A DNA stretch of 64,000 nucleotides from Candidatus Zambryskibacteria bacterium RIFOXYC1_FULL_39_10 (GTDB lineage: Bacteria > Patescibacteriota > Minisyncoccia > Phycocordibacterales > WO2-35-19): contig MHWW01000003.1 in assembly GCA_001824275.1 (NCBI GenBank), positions 19,325-83,324 of the forward strand, given 5' to 3'. Made by a program: the position numbers and the translations under genes. The notes beneath the pieces were generated by a model. It did not search any database. It was given only the letters and a program-made list of their open reading frames with translations, and had not been told where the DNA came from. The stretch's first letter is position 1; each line of letters starts with the position of its first letter. This document shows, one piece after another, positions 1 to 35,750 of the stretch.

Positions 1-1210
1 GTCTCCTCTTTTTTGTTTTATCCGAGATTTTCTTGACCACATGAAGCGGATAAAACTGATAATAATCTTTTTCATCAAACCAAGCGCAAACAAAATTGAA
101 TATTCGCAGTCCCGTGAGGCGTGACATAGCGAGTGCATACCATGTCAGCTGTTCAATTGGTTTTTCCTTACTAGCATTTGGTTTGTAATCAAGTAGATGT
201 ATTTGGCCGTTCCTGATTTGTACTATATCTATATGCCCGGTCAACAATTTCGGTAAATCAATCTCTTTACCACCTTTAAGCGTTATTTTTTTGTTATCGC
301 TTATTTTAAATTTTAATACATTTTCCATATGCTCCACATCTTCTCTCCTTATATACACCGGCACTTCGGTCGCGACTGTGCAAGAGTCGTTGGCAAGCAT
401 AAATCTTTGTAAATGTTCGTGACGCTCTTTGTTATCAGGAATTGATTGCAAGACGAACGCAGTCAAACGGTTGGCATAATTGAATTTTGAATTAACGATC
501 ATATCAGCCTTATCAAATTTACTGCGGATTTCTGACATTCTTTCACCATCTTGAAAATATTGATGGGGTGTTTCGCTAGAGACATTATCCAAATAACTTT
601 TGAGCGGTGATAAAACTCTATTTTTAAATTCATCCAACATCAAAATTGTTTTGGCTCGGTGGTAGCGGAAACGATAAAGCTGACGATGAGCCATAGTGGT
701 CACTTCAACGACATCTTTTGGGCCAAACATTTTAATCGCATAAGGCCGCAGTCTTTCATATCGGCAAAGTTCTTTGTATTCGTTTATCCAGTCTGATAGC
801 GTTGCTGGCTCCGGTGCTACGCCAAACTTTTGTTTTATAATTTTGCAAGTTTCTTCCAGTGTTAGCCCGAGATTATAATAACTCATTGATTCAATAATAA
901 TATGAAGTGGAAAATGTTTACCTTTTATATCCTGAGCTGTAAATGTCCTGCCACAACCAAAATTTCGGCAAAGATACAACTGCACTACCTGATTTTTATT
1001 TTTTCGGGTTCCTCTTTTAACAAAATTGGTTGACATACAATATGGACAAATTGAGGCATCACGAGCATTGCGAATTGTTTCTGTTTCTTCTCCTTTTTTA
1101 ACCTCACCCCCGTCCCCTCTCCTAGATGCAGGAGAGGGGGGAACAAAAATCCCCGTGATTTTGTCCCACATTTTTGTTATGCCGTTTTTTTGTGTTTTTT
1201 CGCTTGACAT
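1..1210 (-). CDS. Zn-ribbon + HTH protein with C-terminal PD-(D/E)xK-like nuclease motif; partial (3' end beyond window start); start uncertain (ATG at 1210, 1172 or 1036)
   Basis: A long open minus-strand frame runs off the window edge, which is why it is absent from the complete-ORF track. My translation contains a CPYC-x22-CRNFGC zinc ribbon resembling transposase-type Zn ribbons (IS1/IS1595-like), followed by an HTH-like segment. Further in is GHIDIV...IHLLDYK, which fits a PD...(D/E)xK core. The N-terminus MSSEKTQK is encoded by the 47-bp repeat shared with the next gene. Confidence 0.45.
   Translation of the reverse strand, partial: MSSEKTQKNGITKMWDKITGIFVPPSPASRRGDGGEVKKGEETETIRNARDASICPYCMSTNFVKRGTRKNKNQVVQLYLCRNFGCGRTFTAQDIKGKHFPLHIIIESMSYYNLGLTLEETCKIIKQKFGVAPEPATLSDWINEYKELCRYERLRPYAIKMFGPKDVVEVTTMAHRQLYRFRYHRAKTILMLDEFKNRVLSPLKSYLDNVSSETPHQYFQDGERMSEIRSKFDKADMIVNSKFNYANRLTAFVLQSIPDNKERHEHLQRFMLANDSCTVATEVPVYIRREDVEHMENVLKFKISDNKKITLKGGKEIDLPKLLTGHIDIVQIRNGQIHLLDYKPNASKEKPIEQLTWYALAMSRLTGLRIFNFVCAWFDEKDYYQFYPLHVVKKISDKTKKRR
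1104..1139. repeat. C-rich REP-like hairpin element (a): cacccccgt CCCCTCTCCT agatgc AGGAGAGGGG
   Basis: Perfect 10-bp inverted repeat preceded by a C5 tract. Same architecture as the elements at 2570-2606 and 24538-24573. Confidence 0.45.
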
Positions 1211-1292: not shown

Positions 1293-1757
1293 AGCAATAT
1301 TATGTAATTTAAAATACATATCTCTTATTATTTTTGAATCCTTCTCATCCAATTCTCCTATTTTTTCTTTGAATCTCCTATAGTCATAAACCCTTCCCTG
1401 AGATAAAACAACATTTTGATTAATCCCAATAAAAGTTATCGGAGCAAACCATGACCCAGTTTTTGGTTTAGTAGTAAGTGGTAATCCCAAAAAAGAATAT
1501 TTGTCATATTTTTTAAATACAAAAACCGGTCGAGTAAATTTTTGATCTTTACCATTTATTTCAACCCCAACATTTTCTCCAATATAAGACCACCATATTT
1601 CATTCTCTTTAAATAACGGCGGCAAAGATTCGTTGTTATGAATTTTCTCTTTCAAACCAATCCACGCCAAAAATCTTTTAATTATATTTTTTGGTTTTTG
1701 CATATTCTTTTGTGTTTTTTCGCTTGACATTGTGTTTTGATTTGCTATACTCATCAT
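1248..1757 (-). CDS. MazF/PemK-family toxin-like endoribonuclease with N-terminal extension (probable start at the in-frame ATG at 1730)
   Basis: Translation ENEIWW..GENVG.E..GK...RPVFVF...PLTTK......VVLSQGRVYDYRRF.EKIGELDEKD follows the Kid/PemK/MazF pattern (IWwv.lgp..G.E..k.RPvlV...v.PlTs.....q.R..D..Rl....g.l). The upstream GGAGGTG is 17 nt from ATGATG, so the SD and start choice are ambiguous. Confidence 0.6.
   Translation of the reverse strand: MMSIANQNTMSSEKTQKNMQKPKNIIKRFLAWIGLKEKIHNNESLPPLFKENEIWWSYIGENVGVEINGKDQKFTRPVFVFKKYDKYSFLGLPLTTKPKTGSWFAPITFIGINQNVVLSQGRVYDYRRFKEKIGELDEKDSKIIRDMYFKLHNIAEKNRPPVISDRSRG
1707..1753 (+). repeat. 47-bp direct repeat, copy 2 (same promoter-like motif; encodes the leader of the MazF-like gene)
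   Basis: Exact copy of 1184-1231. TTGACA is at 1724-1729 and TATACT at 1746-1751. Confidence 0.8.
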
Positions 1758-1810
1758 GTATCTTTAATGAATTACACCTCCTAAGGTTCTGTACTTAGGC
1801 GGTGTTTTTT
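1724..1810 (+). promoter_or_regulatory. mini transcription unit 2: same promoter, then hairpin CCTAAGgttctgtaCTTAGG, then T-run; antisense to the MazF-like 5' UTR/SD and the NYN 3' end
   Basis: Promoter at 1724-1751; hairpin at 1780-1799; cggtgttttttact follows. Confidence 0.4.
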
Positions 1811-2431
1811 ACTATTCACAGCCCCTCTTGACAAAGAATTTCTATCGTCTATAATGGATAGCACTGATATTCTCCCGGCCGCAAGGTCGGGAGTATTATT
1901 TTTCCTATTTAATTCGACAAATTCTCTTATCTTTTCAAGAATTAAATACTTTGTTTTCTTTAGTTCAAAAGCCAAATTACCCTTAAAACTAACGAAACGG
2001 ATATTTTTGTGCTGTTCTATAAAAACATATTTCCATAATTCAAAATAATCGCTATCTCCGCTGAAAACCATTACCTCATCCAAATTATTAAGACTTCTTA
2101 CAACATCTAAAGTTATTTCTATATCAACATTTCCTTTTTTCTGTCCATTTATATATTTAAGAGGCTTGGTTATCACTTTGGCAAATTTTTCTATAACATC
2201 AAGGTATTTCTTTGAATCGGCATAAGATGTATCGGTTTTTTCAGGTAAGGCGGCATAATAATTGAAAATCTTAACTTCAAAAATAGACCCAAAAAGTTTT
2301 TTCACTTTTTCTATGTCCAATTTCCAACCGGCTTTTTTAGACGCATAATATATATTGGCTCCATCAATAAATATTCCTATTTTCTTTTTTGCTCTATTGT
2401 TTTCCATTTTATTTTTGATGTCTCGTATCAC
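1781..2431 (-). CDS. NYN/LabA-like domain protein (PIN-like RNase fold)
   Basis: KKIGIFIDGANIYYA......VFSGDSDYFEL matches NYN (DUF88/LabA) signature residues. The ~50-aa C-terminal tail overlaps the plus-strand promoter/hairpin unit 3. Confidence 0.65.
   Translation of the reverse strand: MIRDIKNKMENNRAKKKIGIFIDGANIYYASKKAGWKLDIEKVKKLFGSIFEVKIFNYYAALPEKTDTSYADSKKYLDVIEKFAKVITKPLKYINGQKKGNVDIEITLDVVRSLNNLDEVMVFSGDSDYFELWKYVFIEQHKNIRFVSFKGNLAFELKKTKYLILEKIREFVELNRKNNTPDLAAGRISVLSIIDDRNSLSRGAVNSKKHRLSTEP
1828..1906 (+). promoter_or_regulatory. mini transcription unit 3: TTGACA-16nt-TATAAT, then hairpin CTCCCGGCCgcaagGGTCGGGAG, then T-run; antisense to the NYN gene 3' region
   Basis: TTGACA at 1828-1833 and TATAAT at 1850-1855. 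A 9-bp stem (one G-U pair) at 1872-1894 is followed by tattatttttcc. Confidence 0.4.
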
Positions 2432-2569
2432 GACTTGACCTACTCAAAATCTCACGCTTTTCGGATATTTTGGCACTTTCCGTGCTATTCGTGATATTTT
2501 ATTTGGCATTTTTGTTGACATTTGTCAAATAATTTTGCCCCAAAGGGTCATCCTCAAATTTCTTATTTC

Positions 2570-2606
2570 CTAACTCCCCCTGCCCCCTCTTAAATTAAGA
2601 GGGGGT
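2570..2606. repeat. C-rich REP-like hairpin element (b): ctccccctg CCCCCTCTTAA a TTAAGAGGGGG, overlapping the giant gene stop codon
   Basis: Perfect 11+1+11 palindrome at 2584-2606, preceded by a C-rich tract. Confidence 0.5.
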
Positions 2607-5600
2607 TTCAGATGTCCCAGTACCGATATTGACATCTGTTGAAACTGTTTCCGATGCCGAAATTATTTCTGCTGGCGGAGTTACAATTTCTACTACCGGT
2701 TCAGCTGGCGCAGAAATTATTTCTACAACTGGTGGAATTATTATTACACTTTCAGAAGTTGTGCTTGCTGTTATTATTTCTGGTGTTGAGCTCCCCACTG
2801 CCGACGTTGCCTCTCCGTTGAGTTCATTCCCCATTACCGAAATTGTTGTCGTTGTTGTCGTTGTTTCTGATGTCGAAGTGGCTTGCGTTGTAACCCCGGC
2901 AACTTCGGGAGCGGAACGAATCAATTCTTTAAACTGCTCTTTGGTCACACAGACATCATCTACACAAACTTCTCCTTCAATATGCAAACTGCCCACAAAC
3001 AATTTTGTAATCTTAGTGAACTCATCCCCTATTTCCACCCCGACACCCTTTAAATAGACCACAATTCGCCCTAGGAGCGTTTCTTTACCATCCACGGCAA
3101 TGGTAGTCGTAGCGGACACATCATTCTCCAAATCTGCCATTTTTGCATTCAAAATTTCAAATTTAATTTCGCTATTACTTAAAAATTCAGCGGTTGAAGA
3201 AGCATACATTTCCTGTACCGATTTCACTTCCGCGATTTGTTTTTGTTGCTCTTGAATGGCGTTTACTAAAATAGGTGTGAGCTTACCATAGTCCACATTT
3301 GATGGTCGACCCTGTGCATCAAAACTAACTATCTCTGGAATTATTTTTGCCACATCTTCCGCAATAAATCCGACCTGTGAAGTTTGGTTATTGGGCATAA
3401 AACTTTCTTGCCAGTTGTAGGAAACCGGCTGGAGCTGTGCAATTTCGACCAAACCATAATTTAATGGGTTAACATTTTTCTTGAAACGGAGCGATGAACC
3501 TCCGCATTGAGTAGTTGAAGTCGCCAAGTTTCCTGTGGTCGTATTTGCACAAACAAAGTAGCCAGTGGACTCGTTGACGAGTGCCGGAAACATCACAGAA
3601 CCATTTACGGCTAATTTTGCACCAGGACTCGTCGTCCCGATGCCGACGTTGCCACTTCCTAATAATGTCAACACTGACCTTTGCACCGTTTCGCCATAAT
3701 TAACACGAAAATCTATAGAGTTGTTTGCCACACCTGAAGCATGATTTGTATATATACTATGATAATAAGTATCTGGGAAAGATGTTCTCGATAATCGCAA
3801 TACTTCTGCAAACGTGGCGTCTGCCCCACCATTTTCAATCGTAGTTATACCTTTAACATGCAACTTACTCACCGGTCCCGTCGTCCCGATGCCGACGTTG
3901 CCTAGTAAATAATTATTTCCAGTCCCATCTGACTTTAGTAAACCGTCGATTTGCAAATTACCGGATAAATCAACATATCCTTTTTCTCCTCCTAAATTGA
4001 ATGTTATATAGCTATCGGCATATAATTTAAGTTTGTTTGCTTCAGTGCCAGCAATATACGTTCCCGCATCAGTTGTATAATCAGGGTAGAATATTCCTCC
4101 ACCCCTAATATTTCCCGCCACATCCAGTAATGCCCCCGGACTCGTCGTCCCGATGCCGACGTTGCCAGCACTTGTTATTCTCACCTTTTCCGTTGGGACA
4201 CCACTATTAGAAGTATTGAAGATTAAATCGCTGTAATTTCCTCCTCCAATACTTTGCAATGCTTGTATCGAAGCAACTTCCTGATTGGTTAATGTTGAAT
4301 ATGAATTTCTAAAGTGTATACCGCCAATCTCATAGCCGTTCCCTGCCGGAAAAGCACTGATTGTCAACTGAACCGGTGTTGAAGCCGCACTACTTGAAAG
4401 ATGCAATTTACTCTGCGGACTCGTCGTCCCGATGCCGACGTTGCCACTATCTGTTACTAACACATTTGCCGTGCTCCCCGCAGCATTTACAAAAGCCAGA
4501 CCAGTGCTTCCAAGAGTGGAATACCCGATATATCCCTTAGATGTTCCTGCGTTTTTAAACTGTATAAACGCAGAACTCGCAGCAGCTGTGTCTTCAACAA
4601 TAACAGGCGTATTAGCTGCACCAGAAATATGTAACAATGCCCCCGGACTCGTCGTCCCGATGCCGATATTACCGGCGCTTGCAATGAACATTCTATTATC
4701 AACTCCTCCAGAACGAAATCCGATAGCACCACCACTTTCATAGAATCCACCCGTATCAGCACCATTACCACCAAACACTCCGAAATTAGTTTTGAAACGA
4801 ATACCCCCATTCACATCCAACTTCGCTCCTGGACTGCTTGTCCCAATTCCCACATTCCCGGAATTTTGTTGGACGATGAATTGTGAAGTACCGACAGCGA
4901 AGCCACCGGTTGAGATGGTGGAGGTTGCTGTAGTTGAAGTCGCATTGAAATTACCAAATGTTGGAGTGGAGGTAGCAACAATGACACCTGATGCGTTAGT
5001 AGAAAGTAGTGAATTGATTGCAAGACCAGAGAAAGTGAGGGAACCACCTGTAGTGATGTTTCCATTGTAATCAATTGTGAATTTAGAAGTTGAAGCAACT
5101 TTGAGATCTAATAGATTACCAGTGAAGCCAGTGATTGCATCTGCTCCTATGAGTGTTCCGGTTGAACCTACCACTGATAGTTTTGCCCATGGGGATGTAG
5201 TGCCTATCCCGACGTTGCCGGTCTGTTTTACATACAACAAGCTATTACTCGACTCATTCTCAACATTAAAATAACCAGAGGCTCCTGAAATTGTAGATTT
5301 GACATATCTCGAGTCAGATTGCAATGCTCCAATTTCAAAAACTTGTTTCAAGGCATTCCCACTCATAACATCAAAAGTGAAGGCACTTTCCATACTGCCC
5401 GTATTGACATCATTGGCAACCCAACTCATTCTATTAGATTCTCTTACATCATTAGCGGAATCGAGGTAGAAAGAGACATATGCCTCATCACCAGCAGTTG
5501 GTGTGGCTCGTTCATTTCCCTGCAACACCACAACAAGATTACTCGCAGCATCAGTAGTCTTACTAATATCAAGCAAAGCTCTCGGACTCGTCGTCCCGAT

Positions 5601-8600
5601 GCCGACGTTGCCACCAAGAGTTGCGAAGTAGGCAGAACCTGTGGAGGTGATAGCAGTAGTAGAAGCATACCCAAGAGTTGTTAGACCTGATACTGACATT
5701 GTCCCTGTTGCCGTAATGTTCGCTGCTGTGAGATTGCCATTGAAAAATCCGCTACCTGCTACACTCAACAATGCGAAGGGAGAGGTGGTGCCTATGCCGA
5801 CGTTGCCACCGTTCATTATTCTCATTGCCTCTGTCCCAGCTGGTGAAAAAGCAAAGTGATTCGCAGAAGCAGCACTTGAAGCCCAAGTCCACACCGAGCC
5901 AGAATTACTGAATGTGACAGTTGAGACGCCTGTTCTTTCAACAGTAAAGGTTGGTGAGGCCGCTGCAATGTGCAAAATTGATGTCGGACTCGTCGTACCG
6001 ATGCCGACGTTGCCAGTTGCTGCGGCAATTGTTAATCTAGTAGCTCCTACTGGTGCTACGGTATTATCATAAAAAAGAAAATTGTTATTTACGTCATTAA
6101 GCCCAAACGACCAAGTCTGACCGGGTTTATTAACTGAAATTTGACTAAAGCCGGTGTCGGATGCTGTGCTTATTGCAATTTTGGAGTAAAGTGGCCCTGC
6201 TACTTGCAGTAATTCAATCGGCGTCGCCGTCCCAATACCAACTTTTCCTGTTGAGAAGTCATAAACAAACCCTGTACCTCCGATTGCAAATCCTCCAGCA
6301 ATAGTTGAAGTCGCTGCAGTTGAAGTAGCGTTGAAGTTACCAAATGTTGGAGTTGAAGTAGCAACGATGACACCTGATGCGTTAGTAGAAAGAAGAGAAT
6401 TGATTGCGGCACCGGAGAGAGTGAGAGAACCTCCTGTGGTGATTGCTCCAGTGTAATCAATAGTGAATTTAGAAGTTGAAGCGACTTTCAAATCCAAAAG
6501 ATTGCCTGTAAAACCGGTCAGAGCGTCCGTGCCTATGACTGTTCCCGTCGTACTCAAATGTTCCACTGAAAGTTTGGCGTATGGTGAAGTCGTCCCGATG
6601 CCGACGTTGCCGGAACTTAAAATTCTCATCTTTTCACTAAAGGTTCCTGCTAACGTAGTAATGAAAGTAAGGTCTGCACTAACTGCATTAGCTACGTGAG
6701 AAGTAATTGTTGTGCCAATTTGGGTCGCAGGTTTGATGGCACTATTAGCATCAAAAGTATTAAATCGCAAACCTAGCCCGGTATTATCTGTGGTATTTGT
6801 GTTCATTAAATCAAAAACTGGGAAGCTACCGAAAGCAGTCTGAGCACTATTTGTTTGGAACAATCCACCTAAAGTATATTGGCTTGTATCTACTACATTT
6901 AGTTTATAGCTGGGACTGGTCGTCCCGATGCCGACGTTGCCGGCAAAGTAGGAGTTGCCTGTGCCGAGGACACTTAAGTTTTGAGCAATAGTGGTTGAGG
7001 CGTTAATGGTTAAGGTTTGAAGGCTTGGTGTGGCATTAAACATTCCATAAAGTAAAGCTCCTGCTTTATCTCCGCTGGTGTTTTCGCGGTCTTGGTTGTC
7101 TATGTAAAAAGAATTGGAACCAAGTTCGTATGCACCCGCATACATTCCAAACATTACATTACTATTTCCAAATAGATTATATCCTGCTTTATATCCTACG
7201 ACTGTGTTGTATGAATATGGAGTAGACCCACCATAACCAACTTTTGAACCAATAAGAGTATTTTGTATAAAGACACCAGTACCACTAAAACCAGCACCCC
7301 TCCCAATCGCTGTGTTGTCAGAACCTGTGGTGTTCGCATAGAGAGAAGAATCTCCAATCGCTGTGTTGTCGTTTCCTGTGATGTTGGAGTAGAGAGAACC
7401 ATATCCAATCGCTATGTTGGAGTTTCCTGTGGTGTCGGAGTAGAGAGAAAAAGATCCATTCGCTGTGTTGTAGGCTCCTGTGGTGTTGGAGTAGAGAGAA
7501 TGAGATCCATTCGCTGTGTTGGAGTTTCCTGTGGTGTTGGAGAAGAGAGATTGATAGCCATTCGCTGTATTGTAGGAACCTTTCCAAGTAGCACCTACTT
7601 GACCCACACTACTTTGTCCTCCTCCACCAATAAAGAGATTATCACCCTCTGAATTAGCACCTTTGTAAGTAGAGAATAAAGCATTTGTACCATTAGTATT
7701 TATATTTATATTCCCCGCAACATCTAATTTCTGGCTGGGACTGGTCGTCCCGATGCCGACGTTGCCGGCAAAGTAGGAGTTGCCTGTGCCGAGGACACTT
7801 AAGTTTTGAGCAATGGTGGTTGAGGCGTTAATGGTTAAGGTTTGAAGGCTTGGTGTGGCATTAAACATTCCATAAAGTAAAGCTCCTGCTTTATCTCCGT
7901 TGGTGTTTTCGCGGTCTTGGTTGTCTATGTAAAAAGAATTGGAACCGAGTTCATACATTCCTGCACTAGTTCCAAGAGCGACATTGTTTGATCCAGTTTC
8001 GTTTAACATAAGAGATTGCGCACCAATTGCGACATTGCTATCACCCGTAGTATTTAACATGAGAGAAGCCACACCAAAAGCGCTATTGATACCGCCTGTA
8101 GTATTAGACATGAGAGATTTTTCACCATTTGCTGTATTAGAGAAACCTGTAGTGTTGTATTTAAGAGCTCGACTACCTATACCCGTGTTCCAATATCCCG
8201 CATCAACATTATCGGTTGGTTGACTAAAGCCGGCTTGTTTTCCAATATAAAGATTTCCAGCATTATAATTAGCATCATCCGGATCACTCGCAAAGATTCT
8301 CAACATCTCCGTACCCGCCGCATCTTTTATAAAAATGCCGGAATTAGCTGGGGTGTAGTTACCGGGTGAGCCGTTGGTAGTGATAGTTAAAGGTGAGGTA
8401 TTAGAATCTCGGTTATCTATAGTCAGTTTGGCTGAAGGCGTCGTCGTCCCGATGCCGACGTTGCCTGTCGCTCTCCAAACACTTGTACCATCAGTTGTCC
8501 AATTCCCCACACCCGCACCAGCAATCAAAGAACCGTTCCAATAAAGATCACTTGAAGTATTGTAGAGACGGGAATAAGTATCGGCAGGAGAAGACGATTC

Positions 8601-9845
8601 AATATACAAAGCCCCATCTAAAGTCAGAATATCTTGTCGAGTGGTGGTGCCAACGGCCAGCCATTCTGTGGCCGTAAGATCAGCAACTGTCGTTGAACCG
8701 GTGACAGTCAAATCACCAGTCGAAAATGAAAGGCCAATGGCAGTTTGAAAATCAGAAAGGTCATTACTTACATTTGATATGGAATTGCCAAAATTATTTA
8801 CGATCGTGTCATTCTGTCTGGTCACATAATATCTATTTACATTTGGCGCTAACGGATTGACTAGAAAATAATTTTTTAATTCTGCAATTTTAAAATCTAC
8901 ATATTCTCTGTCAGAATCCATCACTACAACTGTTCTAGCTTGCGATGGTGTTTTATTATTTTGATTTATAACTATTTCTTGATTATTTTCTTTGTTAACT
9001 AAAACTGATTCATCTTTCCTCAACCAAGGTTTAATTATTTTAAGAGCAACATTTTTTGTCCAATTAGTTACATCATTCCATCCATTAGCAGAAAAGATAG
9101 AAGCAAAATTATTTTCTCCTAAAGCTACTTTATTATTAATGTTACTAATACCAGATTCAAAAACAAGAGAAGTCTTAACTATTATTCTTTCTTTAAGAGA
9201 AGCTAGTTTTTTAATCTCGGAAAAATTAAAAGCAATGCTAAAAGTCAACAAAATTATGACAGAAATTGAAGCGGCTGAGATTGCAAACTTTTCGAAACCA
9301 GACTTCCTTTTTGATCTCTCAATTACTTCATCAATGTTGGCAGAAGCGTAATATCTAATTTTATCTATATCAAACTCCCTTTTAATAATTGGAAATAATT
9401 CCTTTTTATCGTTATAATATATAGGTTTTATTCCTCTTACATCTCGGATACTCGAGATACGAGGTTTAAGACCTTTTTTCTCTGAAAATATTACTTCATT
9501 TTTATCTATTCCAATTCCTAATTCAAGCTCAGATTTAGCTTTAGATTTTTTCAGTATCTTCGTCTCTTTTTCCTTATTTTTTAAATCTGGTTTTAATGTT
9601 TTTAAGATTGCAACTTCCCTTCTTGATTTACGAATTTTAAGAGTCTTCCTGTGGGTAAGTAAATTTTTATCCTTGTGATTCAAAATTTCACTCTCCAAAA
9701 CATACCAACTTCTACCAACCAAGCTTGCATGAATTTTTTTAGCTCTACAAAGTTGGCCAATGTAGTCACTAGCATAACCAGTAAGTTCAGCGGCACGACT
9801 TGCCGAGATGTATTTTTTACCCTTCAAATAGAGAGTCTTATTCAC
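2595..9845 (-). CDS. giant (2416 aa) tail-fibre-like surface protein. Domains: N-terminal excisionase-type HTH, single TM helix, Gly/Thr/Asn-rich beta-repeat region, C-terminal peptidase S74 intramolecular chaperone (tail-fibre autoprocessing) domain, Thr/Pro-rich tail
   Basis: N-terminus SASRAAELTGYASDYIGQLCRAKKI...GRSWYV is HTH_17-like. The TM helix is FAISAASISVIILLTFSIAFNF at ~aa 190-212. The decapeptide GNVGIGTTSP recurs more than 20 times. C-terminus SSLRFKKNVNPLNYGLVEIAQLQPVSYNWQ...VGFIAEDVAKIIPEIV...VDYGKLTPILVNAIQEQ matches the endosialidase-chaperone/tail-fibre C-terminal domain. Start-codon placement at the 5' end is uncertain. Confidence 0.8.
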   Translation of the reverse strand: MNKTLYLKGKKYISASRAAELTGYASDYIGQLCRAKKIHASLVGRSWYVLESEILNHKDKNLLTHRKTLKIRKSRREVAILKTLKPDLKNKEKETKILKKSKAKSELELGIGIDKNEVIFSEKKGLKPRISSIRDVRGIKPIYYNDKKELFPIIKREFDIDKIRYYASANIDEVIERSKRKSGFEKFAISAASISVIILLTFSIAFNFSEIKKLASLKERIIVKTSLVFESGISNINNKVALGENNFASIFSANGWNDVTNWTKNVALKIIKPWLRKDESVLVNKENNQEIVINQNNKTPSQARTVVVMDSDREYVDFKIAELKNYFLVNPLAPNVNRYYVTRQNDTIVNNFGNSISNVSNDLSDFQTAIGLSFSTGDLTVTGSTTVADLTATEWLAVGTTTRQDILTLDGALYIESSSPADTYSRLYNTSSDLYWNGSLIAGAGVGNWTTDGTSVWRATGNVGIGTTTPSAKLTIDNRDSNTSPLTITTNGSPGNYTPANSGIFIKDAAGTEMLRIFASDPDDANYNAGNLYIGKQAGFSQPTDNVDAGYWNTGIGSRALKYNTTGFSNTANGEKSLMSNTTGGINSAFGVASLMLNTTGDSNVAIGAQSLMLNETGSNNVALGTSAGMYELGSNSFYIDNQDRENTNGDKAGALLYGMFNATPSLQTLTINASTTIAQNLSVLGTGNSYFAGNVGIGTTSPSQKLDVAGNININTNGTNALFSTYKGANSEGDNLFIGGGGQSSVGQVGATWKGSYNTANGYQSLFSNTTGNSNTANGSHSLYSNTTGAYNTANGSFSLYSDTTGNSNIAIGYGSLYSNITGNDNTAIGDSSLYANTTGSDNTAIGRGAGFSGTGVFIQNTLIGSKVGYGGSTPYSYNTVVGYKAGYNLFGNSNVMFGMYAGAYELGSNSFYIDNQDRENTSGDKAGALLYGMFNATPSLQTLTINASTTIAQNLSVLGTGNSYFAGNVGIGTTSPSYKLNVVDTSQYTLGGLFQTNSAQTAFGSFPVFDLMNTNTTDNTGLGLRFNTFDANSAIKPATQIGTTITSHVANAVSADLTFITTLAGTFSEKMRILSSGNVGIGTTSPYAKLSVEHLSTTGTVIGTDALTGFTGNLLDLKVASTSKFTIDYTGAITTGGSLTLSGAAINSLLSTNASGVIVATSTPTFGNFNATSTAATSTIAGGFAIGGTGFVYDFSTGKVGIGTATPIELLQVAGPLYSKIAISTASDTGFSQISVNKPGQTWSFGLNDVNNNFLFYDNTVAPVGATRLTIAAATGNVGIGTTSPTSILHIAAASPTFTVERTGVSTVTFSNSGSVWTWASSAASANHFAFSPAGTEAMRIMNGGNVGIGTTSPFALLSVAGSGFFNGNLTAANITATGTMSVSGLTTLGYASTTAITSTGSAYFATLGGNVGIGTTSPRALLDISKTTDAASNLVVVLQGNERATPTAGDEAYVSFYLDSANDVRESNRMSWVANDVNTGSMESAFTFDVMSGNALKQVFEIGALQSDSRYVKSTISGASGYFNVENESSNSLLYVKQTGNVGIGTTSPWAKLSVVGSTGTLIGADAITGFTGNLLDLKVASTSKFTIDYNGNITTGGSLTFSGLAINSLLSTNASGVIVATSTPTFGNFNATSTTATSTISTGGFAVGTSQFIVQQNSGNVGIGTSSPGAKLDVNGGIRFKTNFGVFGGNGADTGGFYESGGAIGFRSGGVDNRMFIASAGNIGIGTTSPGALLHISGAANTPVIVEDTAAASSAFIQFKNAGTSKGYIGYSTLGSTGLAFVNAAGSTANVLVTDSGNVGIGTTSPQSKLHLSSSAASTPVQLTISAFPAGNGYEIGGIHFRNSYSTLTNQEVASIQALQSIGGGNYSDLIFNTSNSGVPTEKVRITSAGNVGIGTTSPGALLDVAGNIRGGGIFYPDYTTDAGTYIAGTEANKLKLYADSYITFNLGGEKGYVDLSGNLQIDGLLKSDGTGNNYLLGNVGIGTTGPVSKLHVKGITTIENGGADATFAEVLRLSRTSFPDTYYHSIYTNHASGVANNSIDFRVNYGETVQRSVLTLLGSGNVGIGTTSPGAKLAVNGSVMFPALVNESTGYFVCANTTTGNLATSTTQCGGSSLRFKKNVNPLNYGLVEIAQLQPVSYNWQESFMPNNQTSQVGFIAEDVAKIIPEIVSFDAQGRPSNVDYGKLTPILVNAIQEQQKQIAEVKSVQEMYASSTAEFLSNSEIKFEILNAKMADLENDVSATTTIAVDGKETLLGRIVVYLKGVGVEIGDEFTKITKLFVGSLHIEGEVCVDDVCVTKEQFKELIRSAPEVAGVTTQATSTSETTTTTTTISVMGNELNGEATSAVGSSTPEIITASTTSESVIIIPPVVEIISAPAEPVVEIVTPPAEIISASETVSTDVNIGTGTSETPS
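6911..7137. repeat. ~230-bp near-identical duplicate (copy A) within the giant gene
   Basis: About 98% identical to 7734-7960. Both encode ...YELGSNSFYIDNQDRENT.GDKAGALLYGMFNATPSLQTLTINASTTIAQNLSVLGTGNSYFAGNVGIGTTSPS. Confidence 0.8.
7303..7610. repeat. intragenic tandem repeat, 51-bp period x6 (17-aa units NTANGSxSLYSNTTGxx) inside the giant gene
   Basis: ccaatcgctgtgttg... recurs at 7303, 7354, 7405, 7456, 7507 and 7558. Confidence 0.8.
7734..7960. repeat. ~230-bp near-identical duplicate (copy B) within the giant gene
   Basis: See copy A at 6911-7137. A more diverged ~250-bp pair lies at ~4905-5160 and ~6290-6545. Confidence 0.8.
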
Positions 9846-9878: not shown

Positions 9879-9890
9879 AATAAAAAACCT

Positions 9891-9899
9891 GTGGATAAA
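9891..9899 (-). promoter_or_regulatory. perfect DnaA-box 9-mer (TTATCCACA on the minus strand)
   Basis: tgtggataa on the plus strand. Confidence 0.5.
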
Positions 9900-10097: not shown

Positions 10098-10106
10098 GTT
10101 ATCCAC
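10098..10106 (+). promoter_or_regulatory. perfect DnaA-box 9-mer TTATCCACA (context AGTTATCCACA)
   Basis: Exact match to the canonical consensus. Confidence 0.5.
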
Positions 10107-10196
10107 ATTATTAAAGTTACATAACTATTCATAATTATGTATACTTAAGTAGTAATGTTTATATATGTTTACTAATGTTAATAATTTAATTATACT

Positions 10197-10457
10197 ATGA
10201 ACAATAAAACTATCAGCTATATAACAATTAAAGACGCATCTGTTATATTAGGTGTATCCAAGATCACTCTTCGCAATTGGGACAAGTCCGGTAAGCTCAA
10301 AGCTCACCGACATCCCTTTAATAACTACCGAGTCTACAAACTTGAGGATATTGACAATGTCTTAAAAATGATTGAGAGTAACAATACTGTTATTTCTAAG
10401 AGGAAAAGTGAGATTCGTAGGTTGGCAGTCCGCCACCTCGAAGATGAGCGGGCTTAG
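10197..10457 (+). CDS. excisionase/MerR-type HTH_17 DNA-binding protein (86 aa)
   Basis: ITIKDASVILGVSKITLRNWDKSGKLKAHRHPFNNYRVYKLEDID fits the HTH_17 pattern. Confidence 0.65.
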   Translation: MNNKTISYITIKDASVILGVSKITLRNWDKSGKLKAHRHPFNNYRVYKLEDIDNVLKMIESNNTVISKRKSEIRRLAVRHLEDERA

Positions 10458-10894
10458 ATTAATATCTATATAGTATGATGTGAAAGCATTCTTTTGTTAA
10501 TTAATGAGCATTCATTTTATCAGATTCCACATTCTATTTTAGTTTCTATTTTATGATTTAGCACAATGTCTAGTGCCCCCCCAATTGTAGTGATTTTTTG
10601 ATTTATCAATAGACTTGGTCATCTCCATAATTTTTTATATTAATCTTTACTATCCCAATCTTTGCCCTTTACTGCAAATCAATACTGCACAATAAGACAC
10701 ACAATACCTTGAGCCGCCAACATTGTGACCTTCACAACAATTAAGTTTATTTATAATTTCATATTTCAGCATATTTTATTAATCAGTATTTTACTAAAAA
10801 TATGTCTCATGATCACCAAAAACATTCTAGAACCCACCTGCTCAATTTTAATATAATTCTTATATTACAACATGTTTTCACACAAAAAACTATA

Positions 10895-10934
10895 CTAAAC
10901 GCTCAGCGTCCAATATTAGACGCTGAGCGTTTAG
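10895..10934. repeat. perfect palindrome with 16-bp arms (CTAAACGCTCAGCGTC-caatatta-GACGCTGAGCGTTTAG), 55 bp upstream of the RAYT gene
   Basis: Perfect inverted repeat. Candidate transposase-recognised subterminal hairpin or REP, or an operator/terminator. Confidence 0.7.
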
Positions 10935-10937
10935 TAG

Positions 10938-10946
10938 TTATCCACA
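10938..10946 (+). promoter_or_regulatory. perfect DnaA-box 9-mer TTATCCACA (context AGTTATCCACA), abutting the 10895-10934 palindrome
   Basis: Exact match. Confidence 0.5.
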
Positions 10947-10989
10947 GTCCTCAAAACTCTCAATTCTCCACTAAGATATAATTAATATT

Positions 10990-11643
10990 ATGAGATACGA
11001 AAACTTTGCTGTACACGAACACTATCATGTCTTTGGTAGAGGCACTAACAAGGAAAAGATATTTATAGATGATCAAGATAAAGCGAGATTTGTTTTTCTT
11101 ATTACCCATTTTCAATCCCCTATTAAGGTCTACAATGTATCCTGGTATACAGACAGTTTTATTAAGAAAGGTTTTTTTGGTATTAAGGAGGGCAAGATTG
11201 ATGAAATACTTAAACATCGAAGCACCAAACTTGTCGCCTTTGCTTTAATGGAAAATCACTTTCATCTATTAATACAAAATCTTGAAGATGGAATACTCTC
11301 GGTTTATATGCACCGAGTTTTAACTGCTTATAGTAAATATTTTAACGCTAAATATAAAAAGAAGGGCCATGTTTTTGAAGGACCTTTCAAAGCCGTGCAC
11401 ACTAAAAATAATGACCAATTATTACACTTGGCTTCATATATCCACAAGAATCCAAGGGAGATTGAGGGTTGGGATTCTTCATACGACAAGTACCCCTATT
11501 CAAGCTATCAAGACTATATTGGTTTAAACAGGTGGGGAAACTTCCTTTCAACCGATATTATCTTAAAGCAATTTAAGGACCAAACTAAATATAAGGATTT
11601 TGTCTCAACTAGTACCGCAAAAGAAGGCTTAAATTACCTTTAG
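10990..11643 (+). CDS. REP-associated tyrosine transposase (RAYT; IS200/IS605-like Y1 HuH transposase)
   Basis: YHVFGRGTNKEKIF.DDQDK..F; HuH motif ENHFHLLIQ; ...GHVFEGPFKAV...; catalytic-Tyr region LLHLASYIHKNP. Together these match the RAYT/TnpA_REP pattern. The 3' end overlaps gatB convergently by 15 nt. Confidence 0.8.
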   Translation: MRYENFAVHEHYHVFGRGTNKEKIFIDDQDKARFVFLITHFQSPIKVYNVSWYTDSFIKKGFFGIKEGKIDEILKHRSTKLVAFALMENHFHLLIQNLEDGILSVYMHRVLTAYSKYFNAKYKKKGHVFEGPFKAVHTKNNDQLLHLASYIHKNPREIEGWDSSYDKYPYSSYQDYIGLNRWGNFLSTDIILKQFKDQTKYKDFVSTSTAKEGLNYL

Positions 11644-20704: not shown

Positions 20705-20726
20705 CCCAAATTACACCACACCCCCA

Positions 20727-20749
20727 CGTGTCAAAGACCGTCTTTGACA
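20727..20749. promoter_or_regulatory. perfect 11+1+11 palindrome GTGTCAAAGAC-c-GTCTTTGACAC; candidate operator
   Basis: Read directly from the sequence. Confidence 0.4.
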
Positions 20750-20770
20750 CTTTACTTTTTCAAGATTTGT

Positions 20771-23937: not shown

Positions 23938-24251
23938 AACGGGCTTATACTAACATATTTTTCGACTTTTTTCTAAACAAAAATCCCGCTTGAGAGCGGA
24001 ATCTTTGTTAAGTGGGAAAAGTGCGATTAAGCTCTTTTCTTCTTTGTAGCAACTTTCTTCTTTGCTACTTTTTTCTTCTTTGCTGGCATTTTATTTTATT
24101 CCTTTCCTTTGTTAAAACTAGGGATTGGAATGAGATTATTTTTAAGCGCGCTTGTTCCGATGAAAATTTTTTTAAAATTTTTTCGGAGCGATCGACCTGT
24201 ATTAATTATCGCTCTAAAAAATATTTAAGTAAATATTTTTTTCATCAAATG

Positions 24252-24260
24252 TGTGGATAA
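24252..24260 (-). promoter_or_regulatory. perfect DnaA-box 9-mer (minus-strand context AGTTATCCACA) in the secA-upstream intergenic region
   Basis: tgtggataa on the plus strand. AT-rich ~30-bp direct repeats follow at 24281-24400. Confidence 0.5.
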
Positions 24261-24401
24261 CTGAAAAAACTTTTTTTGAAAAGTTTTTTAATTTTTAATT
24301 TACAATTTTTAATTTTTAATAAATGTCTAAATTTTAAATTAGGAAATTGAAACATTGAAAATTATTTGAAAATTTTAAATTAGAAATTGAAAATTAAAAA
24401 A

Positions 24402-24425
24402 TTCCGACATGTCGGAATTTTTTAT
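24402..24425. terminator. bidirectional rho-independent terminator: A-run, TTCCGACATGTCGGAA, T6
   Basis: A palindromic GC-containing stem flanked by A- and T-runs, downstream of the minus-strand gene 24709-26928. Confidence 0.55.
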
Positions 24426-24433
24426 GCGTTGTC

Positions 24434-24496
24434 GCGCGACCGGCGGAAGCTATCTCCAAAACAAATGTCTATGTGAGTGCGAACCGCCGGTCACGC
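24434..24496. other. GC-rich long hairpin (13-bp stem GCGCGACCGGCGG / CCGCCGGTCACGC with one mismatch, 37-nt loop) in AT-rich intergenic DNA; candidate structured RNA or regulatory element
   Basis: Its composition contrasts sharply with the flanks. It has no tRNA-like cloverleaf. Confidence 0.3.
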
Positions 24497-24537
24497 CGCA
24501 ACACATATTAATAATATATCATTTCGATAATTTTATC

Positions 24538-24573
24538 TAACCTCCCCTTTCCCCTCCTTACATTAAGGAGGGG
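24538..24573. repeat. C-rich REP-like hairpin element (c): aacctcccctttc CCCCTCCTTA cat TAAGGAGGGG
   Basis: Perfect 10-bp inverted repeat with a 3-nt loop in an intergenic region. Confidence 0.5.
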
Positions 24574-24708
24574 TAGGAAAAACATCAACGAAAATGCCAC
24601 CAGGGGGGTGGCGCTTTCGCAGACATTCATTTGTGCTGAAAATTGCTTTTCTGCACTCACATTACAAGTATAGCATACTTGACATATTTATGCAAGTGTA
24701 CCTGTGGA

Positions 24709-35690: not shown

Positions 35691-35750
35691 AAAAATGTGG
35701 CCTCAGAATAGCAGATTCTGAGGCCATTTGCACGCCTTGTGCATCTCTCA

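Follow-up and report, generated by a model that had tools for sequence, protein, structure and literature searches.

A RAYT-like Y1 HuH gene of Patescibacteria and the upstream palindrome that is probably its cognate site

The closest described relatives of the system considered here are the RAYT or TnpAREP proteins of REPtrons, tyrosine transposases associated with repetitive extragenic palindromes (REPs). To our knowledge, the host role of such domesticated transposases is still unknown, and in model bacteria the hundreds of REP copies around the enzyme make the question hard. Here we analyze a gene of this kind, and the palindrome upstream of it, in a 64,000-nucleotide stretch of DNA (the window) from Candidatus Zambryskibacteria bacterium RIFOXYC1_FULL_39_10 (contig MHWW01000003.1), which has a low GC content (36%) and whose genes have their nearest relatives in metagenome-assembled, Zambryskibacteria-like Patescibacteria. 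Full-text literature searches turned up no publication that connects RAYT or REP to Patescibacteria or to the candidate phyla radiation; the matches to "RAYT" together with Patescibacteria were papers on gut, rumen and soil microbiomes, unrelated to transposases. From the sequence, a structural model and analogy to characterized enzymes, we consider it probable that the gene encodes a domesticated Y1 HuH endonuclease/ligase for single-stranded DNA (ssDNA), of the RAYT/TIRYT kind, and that a 44-bp palindrome upstream of it is its cognate hairpin, present as an inverted doublet.

The gene is located as follows.

10990–11643, plus strand: Y1 HuH gene (TnpA_Y1 class 2, RAYT/TIRYT-like), 217 aa, assigned by motifs, Pfam and fold

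Its HuH motif reads NHFHLL (H90 and H92, nt 11257–11265), and its tyrosine motif reads YIHKNP (Y150, nt 11437–11439). The initial annotation, made from the sequence alone, had described a RAYT-type tyrosine transposase of 217 aa with a HuH motif and a YxxNP tyrosine region. The reading frame and the HuH motif stand as described, and the tyrosine is indeed accompanied by NP, but the spacing is YxxxNP. In this class of proteins, Y---NP is the signature of TnpA_Y1 class 2 and Y---Q that of IS200 (Quentin et al. 2018, PMC6006769). The search with the Y1_Tnp profile that the annotation had proposed gives 35.2 bits (Pfam PF01797), above the cut-off of 23. The label RAYT fares less simply: it agrees with the motif, the fold and the association of the family with palindromes, but the NCBIfam RAYT equivalog (NF047646) scores 37.5 bits, far below its cut-off of 80. 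In a sequence search of the Protein Data Bank (PDB) with the family profile, E. coli TnpAREP (4er8) was a marginal match (E = 0.51), and the C-terminal 158 residues alone gave no match. Because this sequence link to solved structures is marginal, a fold search was needed. An AlphaFold (AF2) model built from 56 homologues (pLDDT 92) has as its top match 4er8, the complex of E. coli TnpAREP with its REP hairpin (E = 5e-5, TM 0.66 on the target), followed by the TnpA proteins of IS608, ISDra2 and IS200. The HuH and YxxxNP motifs are retained in 78 of 80 homologous loci, with YIH[KRL]NP as the family form, and the C-terminal "SS" motif is present as YPWSSY. By its motifs and predicted fold, the product is thus a class-2 (Y---NP) Y1 HuH enzyme of the RAYT kind.

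Three groups of described proteins invite comparison. First, with RAYT/TnpAREP (the REPtron; E. coli YafM, PDB 4ER8) the protein shares the Y1 HuH fold, the Y---NP motif, vertical inheritance and a copy number of one or two per genome, the copies being divergent, at only ~12% identity to 4er8. Second, TnpA_Y1 subclass 2.1, or TIRYT (PMC6006769; De Nocera et al. 2013, PMC3733652), has the same NH[YF]H, Y[IV]H.NP and "SS" (YPWSSY) motifs; several homologues of the window protein read YIHLNP or YVHLNP, and the length is about 220–240 aa. In contrast to subclass 2.1, no C-terminal domain of the Bac_DnaA_C, HTH_23 or HTH_28-like kind was detected in the window protein, nor any second Pfam domain at E <= 1. 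Among 10 longer relatives scanned for extra domains (E <= 0.01), 9 had only Y1_Tnp and none had a helix-turn-helix (HTH) domain. A 265-aa relative (P0268) has the Y1 core and then a Helicase_C match (E = 4e-13), which could be a fusion or an artefact of assembly or gene calling. Further, subclass 2.1 was reported without REP-like hairpins (PMC6006769), whereas the present family has hairpins, and neither TIRYT long terminal inverted repeats nor GGGGWSAS was found beside the window Y1 gene. Third, the TnpA proteins of IS200/IS605 elements (IS608, ISDra2) share the catalytic fold, and their recognition of subterminal hairpins on either side of the gene provides a mechanistic model. Those elements, however, are mobile and multicopy, encode proteins of about 130–150 aa with Y---Q and often carry tnpB, whereas the window gene is single-copy, syntenic and Y---NP.

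The family comprises 506 clusters (50% identity) at E <= 1e-30 and was seen here in Patescibacteria sequences only, the metagenome contigs being counted without one-by-one taxonomic checks. We fetched 200 loci (1.2 Mb in total, of which ~111 kb are syntenic-lineage loci). The homologue set consists of 80 genome loci, 15 of which share the gene order of a giant surface-type gene, a MerR-type HTH gene, Y1, convergent gatB and a GH15 gene; the other 65 are non-syntenic. The MerR-family gene, at 10197–10457, is the conserved upstream neighbor, and the 3' end of Y1 overlaps that of convergent gatB by 15 nt, which leaves no room for the right end of an insertion sequence. Within the syntenic group, the Y1 proteins are 63–83% identical to the window protein (except L024, at 51%) and the gatB products 63–79%; thus, the Y1 gene evolves like its housekeeping neighbor. 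Further subgroups of the family are syntenic among themselves. There is one Y1 copy in the window and, among the 80 genome loci, a maximum of two divergent paralogues per assembly; in genomes with two hits, these are of clearly unequal identity to the window protein (e.g. 79% and 51%) rather than identical. A search of viral contigs found no relatives. Judged by these comparisons, the Y1 gene is domesticated and vertically inherited, not an insertion sequence.

Upstream of the gene lie three elements on which much of the argument depends.

10893–10936, no strand assigned: 44-bp palindrome, TACTAAACGCTCAGCGTCCAAT followed by ATTAGACGCTGAGCGTTTAGTA, an inverted doublet of two imperfect hairpin units
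10938–10946, plus strand: 9-mer TTATCCACA, an exact match to the DnaA-box consensus, separated from the palindrome by 1 nt
10977–10982, plus strand: TATAAT, a −10-like hexamer 7 nt before the ATG, aligned in orthologues, where it is usually TGnTAYAAT

The two units of the palindrome, at about 10895–10913 and 10916–10934, form a REPIN-like arrangement, preceded by CTATAC and found nowhere else in the window. The palindrome can be read as 18 perfect pairs or as 22-nt arms with one central mismatch, and folded as ssDNA it reaches −22 kcal/mol (z = −12). It had first been noticed as a perfect palindrome with 16-bp arms 55 bp upstream of the gene; that 16-nt arm is real and ends 55 nt before the ATG, but the size of the element was understated.

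In an alignment of the 530-nt intergenic region of the window with 14 of the 15 syntenic loci (the contig of the remaining locus, L004, ends 45 nt 5' of the Y1 gene), there is a single strongly conserved block, and it includes the palindrome. Its order is AAAATCTATAC, the 44-bp palindrome and G-TTATCCACA, after which come ~30 variable nt, TGnTAYAAT, 6–10 nt and the ATG. The consensus 44-mer is identical in 9 of the 14 orthologues, and the window departs from it at one central position. Where the palindrome does vary, pairing is kept: L001 has one compensated pair change, and the 10 differences of L014 make up 5 fully compensated pairs, with zero unpaired positions. In two orthologues, L013 (NGFHLL, ALIHKDP) and L024 (GNFYLV, ALIHKKP), the HuH histidines and the tyrosine are lost, and the palindrome has six unpaired positions in each, against 0–3 in all others. 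As gatB and the MerR gene are intact in both, decay of the palindrome tracks the Y1 active site. These comparisons argue that the palindrome is nearly invariant, tied to the Y1 enzyme and under selection for its dyad symmetry.

The 9-mer following the palindrome is a strict box in 12 and a consensus box in 13 of the 14 syntenic orthologues. The window has four exact copies of TTATCCACA, at 9890–9898 (minus), 10099–10107 (plus), 10938–10946 (plus) and 24252–24260 (minus), where ~0.5 are expected; two of these boxes lie 43–44 nt before start codons, those of Y1 and the giant gene. From sampled windows we estimate that the 9-mer is ~12-fold enriched in related Patescibacteria loci, and it therefore probably belongs to promoters or regulation in general rather than marking an origin. 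The window and most homologues, distant ones included, have the TATAAT or TGnTAYAAT box at 6–8 nt from the ATG. A scan for consensus promoters did not call a full −35/−10 promoter in the region of 10977, and the gap between −10 box and ATG suggests that the mRNAs of the Y1 family are leaderless or have very short leaders.

The association between enzyme and hairpin extends well beyond the syntenic group. Nearly every Y1 homologue has, 8–60 nt before its ATG, a hairpin of the form TGTYNRACAC-YSR-GTGTYNRACA, and the units of the window palindrome (CTAAACGC-TCA-GCGTCCAA and its near mirror image; window-type unit AAACGCTSAGCGTYT) are diverged copies of this family-wide hairpin. In homologues ~50% identical to the window protein, the locus has three copies: upstream, inside the coding sequence ~176 nt from its start, and 30–60 nt past the stop codon. 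Scored blind, by requiring 9 or more of the 10 stem pairs, which random zones reach in 8% of cases, the hairpin is present upstream at 51 of 63 non-syntenic loci, within the gene at 39 of 65 and downstream at 49 of 62. The three copies are alike within a locus and unlike between loci.

The intragenic copy keeps the reading frame (TTT GTT AAA CAC TCG GTG TTT AAC ATT, encoding FVKHSVFNI), and the symmetry of its DNA imposes paired changes on the protein: K goes with F, Q with L, and V/N against V/D. For a site taken by codon position alone, without selection for pairing, 86.4% of cells are paired, versus 75.8% in shuffles (0/500) and 32–47% in slid controls; the covariation score is 0.372 versus 0.211 in shuffles (0/500), and 8 of 10 pairs change on both sides. 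The window retains the position of this hairpin in decayed form.

11158–11184, plus strand: decayed intragenic site, codons 57–65 (FIKKGFFGI), homologous to the intragenic hairpin and no longer a palindrome

In the structural model, the peptide of codons 57–65 forms the end of helix 50–60 and the loop 61–66, between helix 28–40, which follows the first strand, and strand 79–86. A cognate repeat in frame inside the enzyme gene, along with flanking copies, is likewise found in TnpA_Y1 subclass 2.4 (Bertels group 4). The insertions of subclass 2.4, however, lie between HuH and Tyr at varying positions and have GT[AG]G feet, whereas the copy here is at fixed codons 57–65, N-terminal to HuH, and co-varies with the flanking copies, although in the window it is decayed.

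The generic hairpin also occurs away from Y1 genes. An exact search found it in at least 120 metagenome contigs, with 150 copies among the matches listed. Of these, 28 are at the three gene-associated positions. Among the matches listed, 57 copies have at least 1.2 kb of DNA on both sides, and 48 of the 57 have no Y1 gene on the retrieved DNA. The listed dispersed copies lie outside ORFs (open reading frames) of at least 120 aa in 61% of cases, versus 24% of random positions, and inside long ORFs in 39%. Their intergenic sites are convergent in 16 cases and divergent in 6, which is the pattern of REPs and not that of operators. Adjacent hairpins form doublets in L087, L108, L186 and L095. Contigs with multiple copies hold to one arm type, and extra copies near Y1 genes in genome assemblies have the arm type of that gene's own hairpins. 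In L095, a unit of ~1035 bp with an 89-aa gene is duplicated in tandem (1588–3718), with generic hairpins at both ends of each unit and six copies in 2.1 kb, which suggests a repeat-associated duplication.

One such dispersed copy is in the window.

20714–20750, no strand assigned: intergenic generic hairpin TGTCAAAGA-ccg-TCTTTGACA (20729–20749), with CACCACACCCCCAC before it

It lies between two minus-strand genes, 22 nt past the stop of one that encodes 59 aa, and its arm type is unlike the unit of the window's own palindrome. A possible source is a second Y1 paralogue elsewhere in the genome, both kinds being present in at least one assembly of Zambryskibacteria (SZUA-15). The window-type unit itself occurs, in the 200 fetched loci, only at the upstream site of syntenic loci; no other was found in the 64-kb window and the ~111 kb of orthologous loci. 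Near other family members, extra hairpin copies occur at about 1 per 40 kb, and zero extra units in ~175 kb are therefore suggestive of a solitary site. Three matches to the window-type unit in viral contigs were rejected as chance matches: all three are one coding-region sequence, which has one unit only and comes without a Y1 gene.

In several respects, then, the wider family resembles RAYT/TnpAREP: its members are flanked by palindromes of their own, which also occur at scattered sites, most of them extragenic and at the ends of convergent or co-directional genes, and the inverted doublets among the Y1 family hairpins recall REPINs. There are differences as well. There is no GT[AG]G foot, and the consensus of oriented copies has AT-rich flanks only (aaTGT...ACAtt). 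The family hairpin, AT-rich and closed by a 3-nt YSR loop, is conserved in many lineages instead of being species-specific, and in the window lineage it appears to be solitary. As to REPtron-like flanking, the window has a palindromic doublet upstream only (the 3' end overlapping gatB); in the wider family hairpins are upstream, downstream and intragenic. Taken together, the sequences describe a RAYT-like system of Patescibacteria, of which the window lineage appears to hold a reduced version with one solitary palindrome.

How might such a system work? A proposal can be built on the fold and catalytic motifs, the evolutionary coupling of enzyme and palindrome, the selection for dyad symmetry and the dispersal of the generic hairpin, all of which are shown by the alignments and the model. 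By analogy to E. coli TnpAREP and IS608 TnpA, the protein would recognize the hairpin in single-stranded or extruded DNA. Nearby ssDNA would be cut and rejoined by means of a HuH-bound metal and Tyr150 through a 5'-phosphotyrosine intermediate, as homology predicts. The ancestral state, which would survive in the homologues of ~50% identity, may have had a hairpin over the promoter, one in frame in the gene, one after the stop codon and dispersed, REP-like copies. In the window lineage, where the gene is wedged between gatB and the MerR-type gene, loss of the intragenic and downstream copies would have left one enzyme and one target site beside its own leaderless-type promoter. The likeliest present role of that site would be feedback control of the Y1 gene or single-site nicking and rejoining. 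In distant homologues the upstream hairpin abuts the −10 box or ends 15–18 nt before TATAAT, and in the latter arrangement the −35 is provided by the right arm (TTGACA, TTGAAC or TTAACA); autoregulation seems the likeliest everyday role because binding or extrusion at that promoter should shut it. On the minus strand, the palindrome may additionally stop gatB read-through. A bolder proposal, that a RAYT-type enzyme has here been reduced to one gene and one selected palindrome, with no dispersed repeats left for it, and serves a host function at one chromosomal site, is conceivable, but we would not bet on it.

Several observations weigh against this interpretation or weaken parts of it. First, no consistent strand orientation of the three hairpins could be found from their loops (CGA or TCG), which would not be expected of a strand-specific enzyme and would also fit recognition of a double-stranded dyad; either double-stranded symmetry is recognized or the loop inverts frequently. 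Second, the window palindrome ends 40 nt before the −10 box, off the core promoter, so that promoter occlusion is less obvious there than in distant homologues; with the doublet at that distance and abutting the conserved TTATCCACA, regulation would be less direct. Third, the absence of dispersed window-type units is limited to the window and the fetched loci. Fourth, the joint decay of palindrome and catalytic residues is seen in two orthologues, L013 and L024, which are 56% identical to each other and may be sisters, in which case they would represent one event. Separately, within the intragenic loop (L015–L080), CGA (Arg) and TCG (Ser) are about equally common, independent of the flanking copies, a pattern that suggests recurrent loop inversion in coding sequence.

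The alternative that survives best, although we think it improbable, is that of the initial annotation, in which the enzyme is a RAYT and three C-rich hairpins could be its cognate REPs, mobilized by it round the genome.

1104–1139, plus strand: C-rich element copy 1, ACCTCACCCCCGT followed by CCCCTCTCCT..AGGAGAGGGG (CCCCTC..GAGGGG at 1114–1139)
2570–2606, plus strand: C-rich element copy 2, ETPS and the stop codon of the 2416-aa giant gene (CCCCTC..GAGGGG at 2584–2604)
24538–24573, plus strand: C-rich element copy 3, intergenic (CCCCTC..GAGGGG at 24551–24573)

These hairpins, of the pattern ACCTCACCCC(C)-N3-CCCCTCTCC...GGAGAGGGG, are real (3 in the window, versus 0.01 expected from shuffles) and lie where they had been placed: in the 5' region of the first gene, at the stop of the giant gene and in the intergenic region upstream of secA. 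Copy 1 is read in frame, as VPPSPASRRGDGGEV, within the N-terminal portion encoded by the first minus-strand gene; copy 3 follows the stop of a Wzy/TPR gene by 136 nt and precedes the start of secA by 614 nt. The giant gene (2595–9845, minus strand), a conserved neighbor of the Y1 locus, encodes an HTH_17-like N terminus, one hydrophobic segment and dozens of GNVGIGTTSP-type repeats. The C-rich elements are denser in this lineage, with 3 copies in the 64 kb of the window and 5 in 111 kb of syntenic-lineage loci; the other genome loci (451 kb) have 1 copy and the metagenome loci (660 kb) have 6. They are also polymorphic: L007 (~1920–1941) and L012 (~1729–1750) have, on the minus strand, an in-frame copy in a variable linker of the giant gene (NPPSPPYIKGGTG), whereas the same linker in the window, L005 and L009 has none, so the element has been gained or lost. 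There are weak links to Y1 biology as well. A 5' C-tract also precedes the generic hairpin at 20729, and such tracts flank 17 of 113 gene-associated hairpins in the Y1 family (~15%, C- or G-tracts), versus 5.4% background. The C-rich tail read on the opposite strand, GGGGGTGAGGT, fits the GGGGWSAS of TIRYT inverted repeats (PMC3733652). Finally, in L029 a C-rich hairpin (CCCCCCCCTCTAAATTAAGAGGG) directly adjoins a Y1-type hairpin ~60–110 nt upstream of the Y1 ATG, the only gene where we saw both repeat kinds together.

Several observations tell against the C-rich hairpins as cognate sites. RAYT and TIRYT genes have repeats of their own on their flanks, but the element flanking this gene is the 44-bp palindrome, which has no sequence in common with the C-rich hairpins, and none of the C-rich copies in syntenic-lineage loci is beside the Y1 gene, L029 being non-syntenic. 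Moreover, the C-rich family is also present on contigs of other lineages whose Y1 genes bear other hairpins (L040, L125 and L156), and enrichment in one lineage is to be expected of any lineage-specific repeat. At dispersed Y1-type hairpins, C-tracts are not enriched (6.7% versus 6.3%), and at gene-associated copies they reach only ~15%; the C-tract was rejected as a general foot of the Y1-type hairpin. We read the C-rich hairpins instead as a separate, conserved family of small mobile palindromes that, by the evidence of their sequence contexts, insert in frame into genes. Palindromic elements of Rickettsia are short repeats that likewise insert in frame into protein genes and are tolerated in linkers. 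Intragenic REPs (PMC3733652) offer another comparison; the C-rich hairpins are unrelated in sequence to both and come from another phylum.

An alternative that we rate slightly lower still is that the palindrome is independent of Y1 and acts as an operator for the MerR-type regulator, as an intrinsic terminator on the minus strand for gatB read-through, or as both. The MerR-family gene is indeed its conserved upstream neighbor. In minus-strand orientation, the palindrome together with the TAGTTTTTTG after it has the score of a terminator, the corresponding A-run on the plus-strand 5' side is kept in most orthologues, and the overlap of its 3' end with that of Y1 leaves gatB no space for a separate terminator. 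However, the T-run begins 3–4 nt after the stem, and a terminator needs structure only, yet the sequence is invariant in 9 of 14 orthologues. The homologous hairpin unit, moreover, is tied to Y1 in dozens of loci that have neither the MerR gene nor gatB, and in the syntenic group the palindrome decays with the catalytic residues of Y1 while gatB and the MerR gene stay intact. A secondary role as terminator is possible alongside recognition by the enzyme.

It seems very unlikely that some widespread regulator uses the generic hairpin as its operator and that the Y1 genes are simply members of its regulon. The motif is unusually alike across many lineages, has −35-like hexamers (TTGACA, TTAACA) and overlaps the Y1 promoter, all as an operator might. 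But the excess of convergent over divergent sites and the 39% of copies within long ORFs are not what an operator would give, nor does an operator explain three hairpins at each Y1 gene, of which one is read in frame within the coding sequence and another follows the stop codon; and arms that vary by compensated changes and match within a genome indicate a REP-like repeat. Least credible of all is an active or recently active insertion sequence of the IS200/IS605 type with the palindrome as its left-end hairpin: fold and HuH/Tyr chemistry are those of IS200/IS605 TnpA, and a hairpin adjoins the gene, but the locus is fixed in 15 genomes at 51–83% protein identity with one copy in the window, the overlap with gatB leaves no right end, there is no tnpB, the protein has 217 aa rather than about 150, and its motif is Y---NP, not the Y---Q of IS200 transposases (PMC6006769).

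A replication origin or terminus at the palindrome was considered and rejected, because GC skew runs in one direction through the whole window and shows no switch. The 770-nt intergenic region upstream of secA (23938–24708), which holds a TTATCCACA box and a C-rich element, also has perfect AT-rich palindromes at 24216–24241, 24264–24289 and 24395–24424; GC skew flattens there without reversal. Another intergenic hairpin, at 35698–35726, is perfect with 12-bp arms (TGGCCTCAGAAT agcag ATTCTGAGGCCA) and is related to neither repeat family. An Rfam scan of the whole window at gathering thresholds found no known RNA.

If a RAYT-like enzyme paired with its upstream palindrome is the correct reading, the family occurs in the most streamlined bacterial genomes known and does so in two states: a full one, with hairpins at the promoter, in frame, after the gene and dispersed, and a minimal one. 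The minimal state, with one enzyme, one invariant palindrome and a fixed locus, would be a simple system in which to study binding, cleavage and regulation, and comparison of the two states reveals selection on DNA symmetry within coding sequence. Further, there would be no fewer than two families of small palindromic repeats in Patescibacteria, one of them with in-frame insertions in genes. Should the enzyme act at its single site for the benefit of the host, the convergent Y1/gatB locus could be a place of programmed ssDNA nicking and rejoining or of hairpin-dependent control, and in the ancestral, three-hairpin form the in-frame copy would give the enzyme a means of sensing its own gene or acting on it.

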